From contig CAVPDA010000006.1 of assembly GCA_963702495.1 (NCBI GenBank), positions 36,832 through 100,831 on the forward strand: 64,000 bases of DNA, given 5' to 3'. The notes beneath the pieces are model-generated. The model ran no database searches. It was not told the DNA's origin and saw only the letters and a program-made list of their open reading frames with translations. Positions 18,033 to 25,827 of the stretch are shown in pieces. Made by a program: the position numbers and the translations under genes. Origin of the DNA: an uncultured beta proteobacterium (GTDB lineage: Bacteria > Pseudomonadota > Gammaproteobacteria > Burkholderiales > Rhodocyclaceae). Position 1 is the first letter of the stretch. The number at the start of each line of letters is the position of its first letter.

Positions 18033-18935
18033 ATGCCGAAGAAGACCGCCAAGGCGGGCACCTCCAAGGGCCGGGCCCTTTCGCTGCACATCGGGCTGAA
18101 CGCCGTCAGCGGCGCGGCCTACGCCGGCTGGACCGGCCCACTGGCCGCCTGCGAGTTCGACGCCAACGACATGGCAGCGATCGCCAAGAGCCGCGGCATG
18201 AAGCCCACCGTACTGCTAACGCAAAAGGCGACGCGCGACGCGGTGCTCGCCGGCATGCGCGATGCGTCCAAGACGCTGGCTGCGGGGGATCTGTTCTTCC
18301 TGACCTATTCGGGCCACGGAGGCCAGGTGCCCGACGTCACCGGGGAGGAGGCCGACAAGAAGGACGAGACCTGGTGCCTCTACGATGGCCAGCTGATCGA
18401 TGACGAACTGTATGCACAGCTGTCCGCCTTCAAGGCCGGCGTGCGCGTACTGGTGCTGTCCGACAGTTGCCACAGCGGTACCGTCACGCGCGAGGCGCTG
18501 GTGCCCAGCGCGCTGCCCGATCTGCGGCCCAAGTGGATGCCAACCGCGGTGGCCATGCGCGCCTACCGCGAGCACCAGGATTTCTACGACAAGCTTCAGC
18601 GCGATGTGGCCCGGGCTGCGGGCAAGCCGGTGGATCCCGATGCGGCGTTGGCCAACGTCACGGTGAGCGGGCGGCTGACAGCGATCGTGAGTAAGTTCAG
18701 TCCGGCGGTCGTCCTGATCTCGGGCTGCCAGGACAACCAGACCTCGATGGACGGCGACCACAACGGCGCATTCACCGAGCGGCTGCTCAAGGTGTGGAAG
18801 GGCGGGGCCTTCAGCGGCAACTACATGCAGTTCCACAAGCAGATCCTGGCCGGCATGCCGCCGACCCAGTCACCCAACCTGTTCACGCTCGGCCCGGTGA
18901 GCCGGCTCCTGGCCCAGAGCCCCTTCAGCGTTTGA
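18033..18935 (+). CDS. Stand-alone caspase-family (peptidase C14, orthocaspase-like) protease
   Basis: SD aggagag then ATG at 18033. [10 protein letters not shown] (His codon 18315-18317), [12 protein letters not shown] (Cys codon 18468-18470), [13 protein letters not shown]...GAFTERLL: the conserved C14 blocks. There are no extra domains. Confidence 0.9.
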
Positions 18936-19099
18936 GCCCGGCCGGCGCAATCGCGTCGCGCTGCAGCGCGGGATCGAAGCGCGGGGTTGAAATGACCAAA
19001 AGATACGTGCCGGCTGACACCCACGCCTGCCTCTAGATTTGCCCGCAGCGCTCGGGCTGCGGTTGTCCGACGGGCCCGACAAGAACGAGGAGACCTCCG

Positions 19100-22000
19100 A
19101 TGGCACAGACCGTCCCGATCAGGATCACCGGACGGGCCGATGCGCCGGTTCTGCCGCCGCTGCTCGCCGTTGCGAGCCGTGCCGCCGGCGTGGTGGCCGA
19201 TCCCTTCCTTCCCGCGTCCTACTTTCGTCCTACCGGCACCTATGACGTCGGCCCGGCGGCGCGCGGCGCCGAGGGCACCGCGGCGCACGAGCATGCCGCG
19301 GCGGCCGACGAGGTCGTGGTGCTCGAACTGGCTGACGGCAGTACCCTGATCACCAGTGCCGCGCGCTTGCTCGACTCGCTGCAGCGCGTCCATCCTGACT
19401 GGATCGAGGACGGCGCCATCCCGTTCGAGAAACTGCGTGCCGCCGGTGCCGCGCCCGGACGAGGTCTGGGCGAGGCGATGGGCGGCCTGGTCAGCAAGGT
19501 CTTCACCATCGTCGCCGGCGAGACAAGCGACCCGATCATCGACGCTGCAATCGACGAGCTGAAGAACAAGGGACTGGCCCCGATTGAGCTGGGAATCACC
19601 TGGGCCGGCACCAAGGCGCTGATGTGGGCGATCGAAAGCCGCCTCGTCAAGCAGCCAGGCCTGTACCGCTGGGTTGGCGCGAGCGGCAAAGCCGACGACC
19701 TGGAAGCGCCGAGGCAGGACGAGCTAGATCAGGCCGTGGCCGACAAACTGCCGATGCTGGTTTTCGTGCATGGTACCGGATCGAGTTCTTTGGGCAGCTT
19801 CGGCGAGCTGCGCGCCGGGGACCGCGACCTGTGGTCCGCGCTCGAGCGACACTTCACCGGCGGTATCTACGCATTCGAGCATCGCACCCTGTCCGAGAGC
19901 CCGGTTGAGAACGCCCTGCACCTGGCCCGTGCGCTGCCTAAGGGTGCGCACCTGAACCTCGTCTCGCACTCGCGCGGCGGGCTGGTGGCGGACCTGCTGT
20001 GCCTCACGGACTTCGAGGCGCAAATCGACGCCTTTGCCCGGCCGAAGAACCTCCCCGGCACCGGCGATGCCGACCCCGATAGCGACGCTGCCAAGGCCTT
20101 GGCCGGGCAGCTCGACGACGCCTACCGCGAGCACCGGGCGCAGCTGCGCGAGCTGGCCAGCGTCCTGCGCGACAAGCAGTTCAACATTCAGCGCTACGTG
20201 CGCACCGCGAGCCCGGCCAACGGCACCAAGCTCGCCAGCGGCAACTTCGACCTGTTTCTTTCTGGTCTGCTTACGCTGATCGGTCAGGTGCCGTTCTTCT
20301 TCGGCAGCCCGTACTACGCCGCATTCAAGCGGGTCGTGATCGAGATCGCGAAGAACCGCACCAACCCCCACCTGGTTCCCGGCATCGAGGCGCTGCTTCC
20401 AGACTCGCCGCTGGCCCGCCTGCTGCGCGATGCGCAGGTGCGCGCCGGCTTCGCGATGTCGGTGATCGCCGGGGACATCCAGGGCGGCAACCTGCTCAGG
20501 CGGCTCGGACTGCTGCTCACGGACACGCTGATCTTCGATCGCGAGGACAACGACCTGGTGGTCAACACCACCGCCATGCTCGCCGGCATCGCGCCGCGCG
20601 CAGGCGCGCGAGTGCTCTTCGACCGCGGTGCTGACGTCTCCCACTTCCGATACTTCACGAACGTCGGGACGCGCTCGGCGCTGCGCGACTGGCTGGTCGA
20701 ACGCGACCCGGCCGCGCTCGATGTATTCCATGCCCTTCCAAGCGCGCAGGACTACGCCGCAGCGCTCGCCGCCGCGGCGCGTGACGTGTTCGCGACGGAC
20801 CGGCCAGTGGTCGTCGTGCTGCCCGGAGTGATGGGATCGCACCTGCAACGGAATGGGAAAGACCGCGTCTGGTTCGACCCGGCGGACATCGCCACCGGCG
20901 GCCTGAGCAAGATCGAATGGGGCAAAGCGGGTATCGAGGCCGAGGACTTGTTCGGCATGCTCTACGGCGACCTGTGTAAGGCGCTCTCAGAGAGCCACCG
21001 CGTCGAGCGCTTCCCCTACGACTGGCGTCAGCCGCTGGACGCGCTCGGCGAGCGCCTCGGGGAATTCCTCGACCGGCTGATGAAGCGCACGCAGCAGCCA
21101 ATTCGCCTGCTGGCGCACAGCATGGGCGGATTGGTGGTGCGCGCCGCGATCCACAAGCGCCGACCGGTGATGGACGCGCTCATGGCGCGCGAGGGCGCAC
21201 GACTGGTGATGCTGGGCACGCCGCACCAAGGCGCGCACTCGATGGTCGAGAACCTGATCGGCAAGGGCGACACGCTACGCATGCTGGTACGGCTGGACGT
21301 GACGCACAGCATGCAGGAGGTACTCGACATCGTCGCCGGCTTCAGGGGCGCGCTGCAGTTGCTGCCCAAACCCGGTTTCAGGGACATGTTCCAGGGCCAG
21401 AGCGACGGCGGGAGCTTCTACGACTACCAGAAGGCGCAGACCTGGGTCGATTTCCAGCCCAGGGTGAAAGACTTCTGGTTCGGCAATGGTAAGGTCGGCA
21501 AGCCCTCCCAGGCGGTGCTCGACTCCGCCGCCTGGCTGTGGTCGCAGGACGGGACGCAACGCCCGTCGCTTCCAGCCGATTACGAGAAGAAGAGCCTCTA
21601 TGTGTTCGGCGTGGCGCGCAATACGCCGTGCGGCGTGCGCGAGGAGGGCGGTCGGCTCAAGATGGTCGGCACCTCGCACGGCGACGGCACGGTGACCTGG
21701 GAGTCGGGCCGCATCGGCGGGATTGGCCAGTTCTTCTACATGCTGGCCGAGCATGGCGACCTGCCGGCCACCAAGGAGTACTTCCCGGCGCTGGCGGAAC
21801 TGCTCACCTCCGGTGTCACAAGCCGGCTGATGAGTGCGCCGCCGGTCTCGCGTGCGATCGAGCAGCCGCAGCCGGTCAGCTACGACGCCGGTCCGCCGAG
21901 CGCGGACGATCCGGACATGGTCGGCCGCGCTTTGCTCGGCGGCTCGTTGCGCAACCGCGTGCCGCCGCGCCGCATGCGCCGGCTCGAGGTCCGGGTGCAG

Positions 22001-25100: not shown

Positions 25101-25125
25101 ACCGCATCTTGAGGAGATACTGCCG

Positions 25126-25827
25126 ATGGCCAAGCCCTACATCCTGAAAAAAGGTGACACGCTCGCCAAGGTGGCTGAACGGCTGCTCGGTGACCGCAAG
25201 CTTGCCAGCGCGCTTGCCGGCTACAACGGACTGCTCGACGCCAAGGACATTGGCGTCGGCCAGGCCATCCACATCCCGTCGGTACGCGAGCTGAATCCGC
25301 CGCGCGTCGCCGCCCGCGCGGTACGCGACGTCCCCGCCTGGCCGGCGCCGCCGAACAGGCTACAGGCGATCGTCCAGACCTTCGGCAACATCTGGAACTA
25401 TGTCGGCGATGGCGACCGGCCCGACCCAAAATGGGAGAGCCAGTTCATGGTGTCGGCGAAGATGCCGTTTGCGATGCCGCTCGACTGGGCCCCGCAGCAA
25501 AGCGCTTCGAGCATCCGCTGCCACAAGCTGATCGCGCCTTTGCTCCAGAGCGTGTTCGCAGACATCGTGGCCAAGGGCCTGCAGAAATCGGTCAAGACCT
25601 ATGGGGGCGGCTACAACTGGCGCATGAAGCGCGGCCAGTCCAAACCCTCGACGCACAGCTGGGGCATCGCGATCGACCTGAACGCGCGCACCAACGCGAT
25701 GGGCACGCGCGGTGACATGGACCCAGCGCTGGTGGCGCTATTCGAAGGCTACGGTTTCACCTGGGGCGGACGCTGGTCTGGCGCCAACAAGGATCCGATG
25801 CACTTTCAGTACTGCAGCGGCTACTGA
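25126..25827 (+). CDS. LysM + peptidase M15 (VanY / D,D-carboxypeptidase-like) peptidoglycan hydrolase
   Basis: SD gaggag then ATG at 25126. LysM: YILKKGDTLAKVAERLLGDRKLASALAGYNGLLDAKDIGVGQAIHIP. Zn-peptidase motifs: STHSWGIAIDL (SxHxxGxAxD) and KDPMHFQY. Confidence 0.9.
   Translation: MAKPYILKKGDTLAKVAERLLGDRKLASALAGYNGLLDAKDIGVGQAIHIPSVRELNPPRVAARAVRDVPAWPAPPNRLQAIVQTFGNIWNYVGDGDRPDPKWESQFMVSAKMPFAMPLDWAPQQSASSIRCHKLIAPLLQSVFADIVAKGLQKSVKTYGGGYNWRMKRGQSKPSTHSWGIAIDLNARTNAMGTRGDMDPALVALFEGYGFTWGGRWSGANKDPMHFQYCSGY

Follow-up and report, generated by a model that had tools for sequence, protein, structure and literature searches.

Among the described bacterial systems that come closest to the locus considered here are Craspase, which consists of the type III-E gRAMP with TPR-CHAT (Csx29), and the bacterial gasdermins, which are activated by caspase or CHAT proteases. 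In the type III-B CRISPR-CBASS hybrid of Haliangium, SAVED-CHAT cleaves and activates PCaspase, which leads to the cutting of many proteins and to abortive infection (Steens et al., 10.1101/2023.06.23.546230), and in type IV Thoeris a TIR signal activates a promiscuous caspase-like executioner (Rousset et al., 10.1101/2024.10.24.620036). Metacaspases are classically tied to stress-induced cell death (PMC3734836), and those of the GSU0716 type were noted earlier in Leptothrix, Methylibium, Rhodoferax and Dechloromonas (Choi & Berges 2013, PMC3734836). The cassette described below lies in the window, i.e., the whole 64,000-nucleotide stretch of DNA that was analysed. An initial annotation of this DNA knew of no described system of the same composition, and that statement holds: our literature search found no paper describing such a system, nor any description of a GSU0716-type metacaspase paired with a giant hydrolase-CHAT protein, and PADLOC, run on the locus, contains models of neither the giant nor the M15 peptidase and returned generic caspase/CHAT matches only.

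Organization of the cassette

The features of the locus are as follows (all on the plus strand except the last):

18033-18935: gene 1, 300-aa prodomain-less type I metacaspase (Peptidase_C14; PF00656, E 1.6e-20; 3BIJ, E 8e-83)
19100-25100: gene 2, giant multidomain protein, 1999 aa once repaired (two frames, 19100-23032 and 22929-25100; 1-nt insertion)
19100-19744: aa 1-215, N-terminal domain, mixed beta/alpha in the predicted structure, no family assigned
19745-20779: aa ~216-560, alpha/beta-hydrolase 1 (DUF7379; PF24096, 100 bits, cut-off 33)
20792-21814: aa ~565-905, alpha/beta-hydrolase 2 (LCAT/PGAP1/DUF676-like; three Pfam matches above cut-offs)
21842-21904: aa 915-935, conserved linear motif (R918, Y928-D929-A-G931-P-P; 70-homologue alignment)
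21968-22966: aa ~957-1289, alpha/beta domain and low-confidence linker ahead of CHAT (AF2 secondary structure)
22965-22966: frameshift, TT versus a single T in an intact relative, 1-nt insertion (blastn alignment against L001)
22968-23780: aa ~1290-1560, CHAT protease (PF12770, E 7.6e-33)
23781-25100: aa ~1561-1999, all-helical TPR-like tail, TPR-S-like (sub-cut-off TPR-S match, Foldseek)
25126-25827: gene 3, 233-aa LysM and Peptidase_M15_4 protein, endolysin-like (Pfam, phrog_17001, PDB 2VO9)
25852-26195, minus strand: inverted fragment copy of the interior of an oxidoreductase gene (31903-32488), 91-98% complementary (repeat search)

The three-ORF, same-strand operon read by the initial annotation is real and recurs in relatives. 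Its genes are separated by 164 nt (genes 1-2) and 25 nt (genes 2-3), and their ATGs are preceded at 7-9 nt by the Shine-Dalgarno strings aggagag, aggaga and gaggag, respectively. Since the same arrangement recurs across genera, it is far from chance. The GC3 of the cassette (0.83-0.87) is the same as that of adjoining genes, i.e., host-like as first read; the domain calls made for the three genes were all confirmed, and the motifs quoted for them are all present at the cassette and conserved in homologue alignments. Catalytic residues are intact in all five enzymatic units (Pfam and alignments). The absences recorded at the outset were likewise borne out: neither a TM helix nor a hydrophobic N-terminus occurs in proteins 1-3 (signal peptides had been denied for genes 1 and 2), with the exception of a borderline segment at aa 383-401 of the giant; no Walker A motif occurs in the giant, nor was any NTPase found; and a conserved immunity-like gene was seen neither in the window flanks nor among the recurrent neighbour clusters of ~95 loci. 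The window also lacks any gene for sensing a trigger or making a signal.

A defence-island setting, which the initial annotation proposed to look for among gene-2 homologues, does not apply to the window locus itself, which lies between housekeeping genes; stress-type genes (cold-shock, PilZ, MsrA/B, catalase) are found among these near both the window copy and that in L001. The inverted oxidoreductase fragment, which abuts the 3' end of the cassette, is probably a rearrangement scar outside the system, and L001 has no counterpart to window positions 25869-26467 (blastn alignment).

The metacaspase and the giant protein

Gene 1 had been described as a bare C14 caspase. The fold and the His-Cys dyad stand (His95/Cys146, in motifs YSGHGG and DSCHSG), but the protein is no orphan (3BIJ, PMC3734836): its full-length match to PDB 3BIJ (GSU0716; E 8e-83), spanning p20 and p10 regions with no prodomain, places it by sequence among the prodomain-less type I metacaspases of bacteria that form the GSU0716 family, for which a structure is solved. 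The catalytic Cys is kept in 62/62 homologues and the His in 61, the remaining one having a gap at that column.

More than 1369 homologues of the giant are known, each of ~2000 aa, and all those listed are in one frame; the order of parts is an N-terminal domain, two alpha/beta-hydrolases, a linker motif, an alpha/beta domain with linker, CHAT and a TPR tail. Catalytic-site conservation was counted over 70 of these homologues. The first 215 aa gave no Pfam match even at E 1 and no PDB profile match, and this domain is shortened or missing in distant family members. Hydrolase 1 has the triad Ser291/Asp485/His515 (Ser and His in 70/70, Asp in 69/70) and a conserved hydrophobic insert at aa ~380-405, where the borderline segment lies. 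The triad of hydrolase 2, Ser674/Asp862/His885, is invariant; its Pfam scores are 27.6 bits for LCAT (cut-off 21), 27.6 for PGAP1 (24.3) and 25.6 for DUF676 (20.3), and its Foldseek matches to esterases and lipases are weak because the models of the giant are poor (pLDDT 57-63). Of the two lipase folds first proposed, both are alpha/beta-hydrolase domains with intact triads, but "lipase" holds at the fold level only and a lipid substrate is putative.

In the linker motif no homologue departs from R918 or G931, and Y928, D929 and A930 are almost as constant; this stretch is predicted to be disordered, with pLDDT <50 on either side, and may be a candidate site of proteolytic processing. The segment at aa ~957-1289 has no Pfam match and, by hhalign, no similarity to the CHAT core. 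The CHAT dyad (His1422/Cys1465-1466, in HVSAHG and FLNCCH) is invariant in 70/70 homologues. The tail scores 21-22 bits for TPR-S, under the Pfam cut-off of 27.6; relatives have PF20308 hits on record, and its Foldseek matches from these same models are to TPR/14-3-3 folds (best E 1.9e-4).

The frameshift noted earlier at ~22967 is confirmed as an extra T at 22965/22966. The 97%-identical, intact L001 reads GTGG-TCGAC where the window has GTGGTTCGAC, and removal of one T restores VVLVVDAATANLPWELM and yields a single ORF of the predicted 1999 aa. Because of this 1-nt insertion, the cassette of the window is probably inactive, unless the extra base is a sequencing error.

The endolysin-like gene

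Gene 3 scores 57 bits for Peptidase_M15_4 (cut-off 25) and 18.3 bits for LysM, slightly under the cut-off of 20.9, and its zinc ligands His177/Asp184/His226 (His-Asp-His) are invariant in 121 sequences. By its matches it is endolysin-like and closest to phage endolysins (phrog_17001 endolysin, E 1.2e-15; PDB 2VO9, the L-Ala-D-Glu peptidase of phage A500), and it matches 176 phage records at under 60% identity, with 31-37% among the ten matches listed. Homologues measure 229-236 aa, and since all 12 N-termini inspected open with LysM, there is no room in this family for a signal peptide; no export signal was detected in gene 3 itself or in those N-termini.

Conservation and genomic neighbourhoods

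A metacaspase gene lies directly upstream of the giant, on the same strand, in 68/77 species-level loci with differing genomic flanks and in different genera, and both close homologues of gene 1 examined (2/2) adjoin giants. The conserved core is these two genes, and the three-gene unit first proposed survives as a recurrent caspase-giant pair: just 5/80 loci have an M15 gene next after the giant, scattered over the giant tree, although seen from the M15 side all six sampled homologues (55-73% identity) adjoin a giant. It is thus a facultative yet dedicated accessory. In four loci of a different clade the neighbouring positions are taken by an unrelated gene of the GH19 endolysin type (phrog_181, E 2.9e-55). 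M15 is missing from ~94% of loci, so lysis of the wall cannot be how such cassettes kill in general.

The cassette is patchily distributed, in 290 of 185,579 species (~0.16%), mostly floc- or biofilm-forming betaproteobacteria (Accumulibacter, Rubrivivax, Roseateles, Ideonella, Rhizobacter), and no giant was found on IMG/VR contigs. Genomic location varies among relatives. Two of these (L088 and L094) carry a TIR gene inside the operon, between caspase and giant, and adjacent genes in relatives encode TPR-S proteins (13 loci), DUF4062, patatin, an EACC1-type caspase, STAND and C11/LRR proteins, an integrase and a MazE/PIN pair, which fits the conflict-system reading of the initial annotation.

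Proposed function and alternatives

We modestly favour the view that the cassette is a protease-gated cell-suicide module, i.e., a conflict system of the abortive-infection type, with lipase-like and optional endolysin effectors; the suicide function itself we infer. Intact conserved catalytic residues, the tight metacaspase-giant linkage, the M15 and GH19 partners, the likeness of gene 3 to phage endolysins, conflict-gene neighbours and patchy distribution count for it, with SAVED-CHAT/PCaspase and type IV Thoeris as precedents; the housekeeping flanks, the lack of a sensing gene in the window, the lack of a PADLOC model, the sub-cut-off TPR-S score, the weak Foldseek matches behind a putative lipid substrate, the rarity of M15 and the gene 2 frameshift count against it. 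What stands of the original protease-gated proposal is its domains, recurrent operon and relatives' neighbourhoods; M15 as a core component does not. In such a module the TPR tail would keep CHAT inactive until a trigger binds, which might be an invader protein or, where the operon has a TIR gene, a TIR-made nucleotide. Active CHAT may then cleave the partner metacaspase (as SAVED-CHAT acts on PCaspase), the giant itself, or both, self-cleavage perhaps falling in the disordered linker at aa 915-935, which separates the hydrolases from the protease half. The freed or activated hydrolases would attack membrane lipids while the metacaspase degrades cell proteins, and, where present, the cytoplasmic endolysin-like enzyme could cross the damaged membrane to the sacculus and lyse the cell, so that the lipase would serve as holin.

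The same order of parts (protease, then lipase and endolysin) might be set off by endogenous stress rather than by an invader, in a regulated, social or developmental self-lysis that releases eDNA or public goods, or culls damaged cells, in floc- or biofilm-forming Burkholderiales and Accumulibacter. Such hosts, the housekeeping and stress genes around the window and L001 copies, and the link of metacaspases to stress-induced death (PMC3734836) agree with this. We nonetheless consider it unlikely, as genes typical of anti-invader systems (TIR, STAND, patatin, DUF4062) abound around relatives, and patchiness and variable insertion sites suggest horizontal mobility. Pairing a lipase with a peptidoglycan hydrolase is typical of antibacterial effectors (T6SS Tle, Tae/Tge), and this pairing and the very large size of the giant could suit a polymorphic lipase toxin that is exported (T6SS Tle-like or similar), with M15 as a co-delivered wall-degrading effector. 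That is quite improbable: the proteins have no signal peptide or TM segment beyond the borderline one, the M15 family has no export signals, two cytoplasmic-type caspase-fold proteases with a TPR sensor tail are not what secreted toxins carry, and neither VgrG, PAAR, Hcp or a chaperone nor a small conserved immunity gene, by which the initial annotation proposed to recognize a T6SS-associated toxin, occurs in the window flanks or the neighbour clusters of ~95 loci.

M15 peptidases also include VanX/VanY-type cytoplasmic or periplasmic enzymes, and this membership and the metabolic genes flanking the cassette would accord with housekeeping envelope remodelling, in which the hydrolases turn over phospholipids or lipoproteins, the proteases are maturation factors and M15 trims peptidoglycan or cytoplasmic D-Ala-D-Ala precursors. 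We regard this as highly improbable for a cassette so rare and so variable in location, which in relatives is associated with TIR and further genes of conflict systems, whose M15 is nearest to phage endolysins, and which in at least 4/80 loci besides the window is without one full-length giant ORF. Compatible with the suicide-module explanation for the family is an even chance that the cassette is, in this genome, a decaying pseudogene without present function. The insertion relative to a 97%-identical intact allele, the single-frame state of all listed homologues, the strain-specific scar just downstream and the lack of any other obvious frameshift in the window (the ORFs that overlap at 42209-46824 belong to two normal efflux genes) point that way; against it, there is only one lesion, GC3 and catalytic residues show no decay on either side of it, and a sequencing error in the length of a 2-base homopolymer is conceivable.

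Comparison with known systems

The SAVED-CHAT/PCaspase system likewise encodes a large sensor-fused CHAT protease together with a small free-standing caspase. Its sensor is SAVED, whereas the cassette has a TPR(-S-like) tail; the window has no Cas10 or CD-NTase signal generator; the CHAT protein of the cassette adds two alpha/beta-hydrolases and an N-terminal domain, and has an endolysin-like partner. Cleavage from CHAT to caspase is established there and a proposal here. Type IV Thoeris shares a caspase-family executioner in a short operon, and L088 and L094 add the TIR, but the window has none, the C-terminal ligand-binding domain that PsCaspase has is missing from gene 1, and the giant has no Thoeris counterpart. 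With Craspase and the gasdermin systems the cassette shares a switchable TPR and CHAT protease and, as proposed, release of a membrane-damaging effector by cleavage. It differs in having no CRISPR/Cas genes or gasdermin and in a presumed membrane effector that is an enzyme (lipase-like) joined to the protease in one protein; TPR is N-terminal to CHAT in Craspase and C-terminal in the giant. GSU0716-type metacaspases (3BIJ) align with gene 1 over its full length, with p20, p10 and no prodomain, but reports of them treat the protein alone (Choi & Berges 2013, PMC3734836). Phage holin-endolysin cassettes also rely on a signal-less peptidoglycan hydrolase (here M15 L-Ala-D-Glu-peptidase-like, GH19 elsewhere) that needs a membrane lesion; the present cassette has no holin, spanin or phage genes and its giant no IMG/VR occurrence, and its membrane lesion would stem instead from protease-controlled lipase domains.

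Operon layout and the frameshift in the giant gene

The three open reading frames that the initial annotation had placed on one strand of the window, together with their coordinates and spacers, were reproduced as follows:

18033-18935, + strand: gene 1, C14 peptidase
19100-25100, + strand: gene 2 (the giant), in two frames
25126-25827, + strand: gene 3, M15 peptidase with a near-threshold LysM

Gaps of 164 and 25 nt separate the three genes, the Shine-Dalgarno strings quoted in that annotation lie 7-9 nt 5' of each ATG, and the GC3 of the cassette genes (0.83-0.87) is like that of the rest of the window. 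Removal of one T at 22965/22966 bridges the frameshift and restores the 1999-aa ORF that had been proposed for gene 2, and L001, a 97%-identical relative, has a single T at this position and an intact giant. The chances that the window copy is a pseudogene, rather than the product of a sequencing error, appear to us to be roughly even. Programmed frameshifting was ruled out because the giant homologues all sit in a single frame. An apparent second frameshift, suggested by overlapping + strand ORFs at 42209-46824, is actually two ordinary genes, for an RND membrane-fusion protein (HlyD-type) and an AcrB-type pump; since this is a normal efflux pair, no sign of error-prone assembly comes from there. 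A hydrophobic N-terminus is absent from all three proteins, which agrees with the claim that genes 1 and 2 lack signal peptides, and no transmembrane helix was detected in the three, with the sole exception of giant aa 383-401, a segment of borderline hydrophobicity.

The cassette in both the window and L001 is flanked by housekeeping genes: actP, glucan phosphorylase, PilZ, CspA and SnoaL lie on its 5' side, and the 3' side has GMP reductase, radical SAM, MsrA/B and others. The stretch 5' of gene 1 (window 16200-18000) has a GC of 0.61 and is ORF-poor, with only a SnoaL-like ORF at 17095-17541; relative to it, L001 has ~890 nt (L001 6417-7307) that are additional or divergent. A second low-GC stretch (0.61-0.63) with short ORFs only lies at 34000-38000. 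Right after gene 3, ~345 nt (25852-26195) are a copy, in inverted orientation and with slight rearrangement (91-98% complementarity), of 31903-32488, which is the interior of a pyridine-nucleotide-disulfide oxidoreductase gene (31424-32845). The 600 nt around this copy (25869-26467) have no counterpart in L001, and the copy resembles a scar left by a strain-specific rearrangement at the 3' edge of the cassette.

Domains and catalytic sites of the encoded proteins

The domain calls made from the sequence for genes 1, 2 and 3 were all borne out by Pfam. Gene 1 scores 74.3 bits with Peptidase_C14 (PF00656; cut-off 21.4) and matches PDB entry 3BIJ (Geobacter GSU0716) over its full length (residues 15-300, E 8e-83). 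Of its catalytic dyad, Cys146 is present in 62/62 homologues and His95 in 61/62, with a gap in the remaining one, and an acidic cluster (D101-E125) is conserved. Judged by the Pfam match, the match to a solved member and the dyad, gene 1 is a GSU0716-type bacterial type I metacaspase. Metacaspase-type cleavage would be Arg/Lys-specific, the expectation for the family, and Ca2+-dependent, and the acidic cluster is the one feature observed in gene 1 that bears on this prediction. Choi & Berges (PMC3734836) place the GSU0716 group among the bacterial type I metacaspases, with a p20 and a p10 region but lacking a prodomain, and report its presence in Leptothrix, Methylibium, Rhodoferax and Dechloromonas.

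In the giant, Pfam gives the order DUF7379 (100 bits, cut-off 33), a second hydrolase of LCAT/PGAP1/DUF676 type (27.6/21, 27.6/24.3 and 25.6/20.3, respectively), CHAT (PF12770, 114.6/24) and a sub-threshold TPR-S/TPR tail. A Walker A motif is absent, in line with the earlier remark that no NTPase could be recognised. Across 70 giants, eight of nine catalytic positions are invariant, comprising five of the six residues of the two Ser-Asp-His triads together with CHAT His1422 and Cys1465/1466; the other, Asp485, is kept in 69/70. The five catalytic units of the cassette are all intact.

AlphaFold2 models of both giant halves, built on alignments of 17-18 sequences, are poor (pLDDT 63 and 57). 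When compared with the PDB by Foldseek, they give weak esterase/lipase matches (best E 2.6e-3) and, for the poorly modelled tail, generic TPR/14-3-3 matches. The two hydrolases are accordingly described here as putative lipases or phospholipases, identified at the level of the fold, and the modelled tail fold is TPR-like. Structure prediction, recommended in the initial annotation for the tail and the N-terminal 215 aa, thus yielded a TPR-like tail and a generic hydrolase fold and left the N-terminal segment without a match. Neither aa 1-215 nor aa 957-1289 has a match in Pfam, the PDB or an internal-repeat search, and no hit came from searching the PDB with profiles of the two halves. The window giant's tail scores 21.1-21.7 bits with TPR-S (PF20308), below the cut-off of 27.6, and PF20308 matches are recorded, unmarked, for orthologous giants. 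The name 'TPR-S', used here in the Pfam sense only, reportedly comes from Burroughs et al. 2015 (NAR).

Separase and Csx29 carry a degenerate second caspase/CHAT domain; for such a domain in the pre-CHAT segment of the giant, hhalign with shallow alignments gave no signal (E 0.65). The linker between the hydrolase and protease halves is predicted to be disordered and contains a strongly conserved motif, R918 plus Y928-D929-A-G931-P-P, in which R918 and G931 are invariant among the 70 giants and the remaining residues nearly so. This R918...G931-P-P motif is a candidate proteolytic processing site.

Gene 3 passes Peptidase_M15_4 (57 bits, cut-off 25) and falls just short of LysM (18.3 bits, cut-off 20.9), a domain that many orthologues carry on record (PF01476). 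The zinc ligands H177/D184/H226 are invariant in 121 sequences. The protein matches the endolysin family phrog_17001 (E 1.2e-15) and the L-Ala-D-Glu peptidase of Listeria phage A500 (2VO9), and has 176 matches to phage records, all below 60% identity and at 31-37% in the ten listed. Its 120 homologues are all ~230 aa long; in the 12 whose N-termini were inspected the LysM begins at once, so that a signal peptide could not be accommodated. By these matches gene 3 is endolysin-like.

Spread of the cassette and its accessory genes

Giant homologues of ~2000 aa number more than 1369, every one a single-frame ORF, and most come from Burkholderiales (Rubrivivax, Ideonella, Roseateles/Paucibacter, Piscinibacter, Rhizobacter, Variovorax, Rhodoferax) and Accumulibacter. 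The N-terminal 560 aa matched 2151 clusters (50% identity), 814 of them with E < 1e-30; the matches listed are mostly 1700-2190 aa, and in the distant members the first 150-210 aa are missing. In a census of one genome per species, 290 of 185,579 species carry the giant, and 80 loci were inspected; loci are designated here by L numbers. Of the 77 loci having upstream DNA, 68 carry a same-strand gene 1 homologue directly 5' of the giant, and these homologues fall into two subtypes (60-78% and 31-39% identity to gene 1). When two close caspase homologues were taken as the starting point instead, both adjoined giants. Because the genes flanking it vary from genus to genus, the metacaspase-giant pair moves as a cassette. 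A phage or prophage origin finds no support: the giant has no match in IMG/VR, the window is without tRNA genes and no phage genes flank the cassette.

The window and L001 apart, gene 3 is directly 3' of the giant in only five of the 80 loci (L008, L021, L027, L062, L072), and the M15-positive loci are spread across the giant tree. When M15 homologues (55-73% identity) were sampled instead, 6/6 adjoined a giant, five immediately downstream and the sixth convergent with it and one gene away. M15 is therefore a dedicated but facultative accessory, and of the three-gene unit first proposed it is the metacaspase-giant core that holds, with M15 optional. At four loci of another clade, a GH19 protein of unrelated type, which matches the phrog_181 endolysin (E 2.9e-55), lies 5' of the caspase, 3' of it or in its place. 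That two types of endolysin have joined the same cassette argues for a true functional tie to wall lysis. The conserved core is two genes, metacaspase and giant, plus an optional endolysin, and the cassette, as a candidate, is real, widely distributed and accessible to experiment. Two metagenomic loci have DUF1353 proteins of 67% mutual identity just 3' of M15 (L086:9811-10470 and L088:11425-12081), and in L090 a 337-aa protein sits between giant and M15.

The neighbourhood in relatives is of conflict type. Genes adjoining their cassettes encode DUF4062, patatin, an EACC1-type caspase, C11 and LRR proteins, MazE/PIN and integrase. In L088 and L094 a TIR gene lies within the operon, the order being caspase, TIR-TPR, giant, M15 in the former and caspase, TIR, giant, TIR-nSTAND-WD40 in the latter. 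In the 80 species-level loci, phmmer with TIR sequences detected TIR genes at five. TPR-S proteins of 650 aa adjoin the cassette in 13 loci, mostly of Accumulibacter. They lie directly 3' of the giant (L006:16139-18091 and 12 other loci) and consist of an N-terminal domain (AMPFG...NVWYELGVRHAL) and then a significant TPR-S / MAP3K_TRAF_bd region; they may act in the system as a second sensor or effector. A paralogous relationship between them and the giant tail found no support, there being no significant similarity beyond generic TPR. A ~215-aa protein, designated c19, is found near the cassette in six scattered loci (L015, L021, L022, L024, L054 and L057; e.g., L022:7590-8231). It has the motifs GHM.D.PGR, GGDLLF and WNG..GDGPGGT and no match in Pfam, NCBIfam or the PDB, and may be a further accessory component.

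Proposed mechanism and alternatives

The reading that we favor, and hold to be somewhat more likely than not, is protease-gated cell suicide with lipase-like and, optionally, endolysin effectors. Two known systems supply the analogies for its steps: the action of SAVED-CHAT on PCaspase (10.1101/2023.06.23.546230) and type IV Thoeris (10.1101/2024.10.24.620036). A trigger would be sensed by the TPR tail of the giant; CHAT would then fire and cut the metacaspase, the giant's linker, or both; the hydrolases would damage the membrane while the metacaspase degraded cell proteins; and a cytoplasmic endolysin, where encoded, would afterwards gain access to the wall. A more elaborate possibility, which we think less likely than not, is a self-contained, holin-free lysis machine serving as immune executioner, in which a trigger sensed by the TPR would set off a CHAT-to-metacaspase cascade, and the cascade would cut the giant at its linker and release twin phospholipases. 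Membrane damage by the phospholipases would then both kill the cell and let a signal-less, domesticated phage endolysin (M15 here, GH19 elsewhere) dissolve the wall.

Self-lysis, endogenous or social, would be another use for such a cassette and is unlikely in our estimation. A secreted antibacterial toxin of the T6SS Tle type is quite improbable, as neither VgrG/PAAR/Hcp linkage nor a cognate immunity gene was found at the window flanks or in the recurrent neighbour clusters, and a role in envelope housekeeping is, if anything, more improbable still. The hypothesis of a suicide cassette is directly testable by mutagenesis because every catalytic residue is known. If it is true, the long-orphan GSU0716/3BIJ metacaspases would gain a function and the recruitment of phage endolysins by a host would be demonstrated.

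Comparison with known systems

Caspase-family proteases serve bacterial immunity in gasdermin systems, Craspase, the SAVED-CHAT/PCaspase cascade and type IV Thoeris, and the outputs known to us are pore formation or bulk proteolysis. The initial annotation knew of no described system with the composition of this cassette, and neither the literature nor PADLOC has since supplied one. Searches for DUF7379, TPR-S and CHAT with lipase, caspase and phage turned up nothing relevant, and PADLOC-DB v2.0.0 matched no system: its matches are a generic caspase (E 6e-10) and a weak SAVED_CHAT only, with no family for the N part of the giant or for M15.

The cassette resembles SAVED-CHAT/PCaspase in that a CHAT protease and a separate caspase are encoded together (68/77 loci), but it is without a SAVED domain, the PADLOC SAVED_CHAT match (E 0.0014) covering the CHAT part only, and no Cas10 or CD-NTase gene that could act as signal generator was found among the window neighbours. 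It differs from type IV Thoeris in that the window has no TIR gene, such genes being present in some relatives only, and in that gene 1 is a bare 300-aa metacaspase whereas the Thoeris caspase has a C-terminal ligand-binding domain. It differs likewise from bacterial gasdermin systems and Craspase, as the neighbours with Pfam annotation, both in the window and in related loci, include no gasdermin and no gRAMP/CRISPR genes. By analogy, the cassette would work like the known caspase/CHAT abortive-infection systems, yet it falls outside each of them. Should the proposed mechanism be correct, this compact cassette of two to three genes would add enzymatic destruction of membrane and wall to the protease-gated outputs. 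On the more elaborate reading, as an immune executioner, it would be the first case in bacterial defence of a lipase and an endolysin taking the place of pore-formers or nucleases as protease-released effectors.
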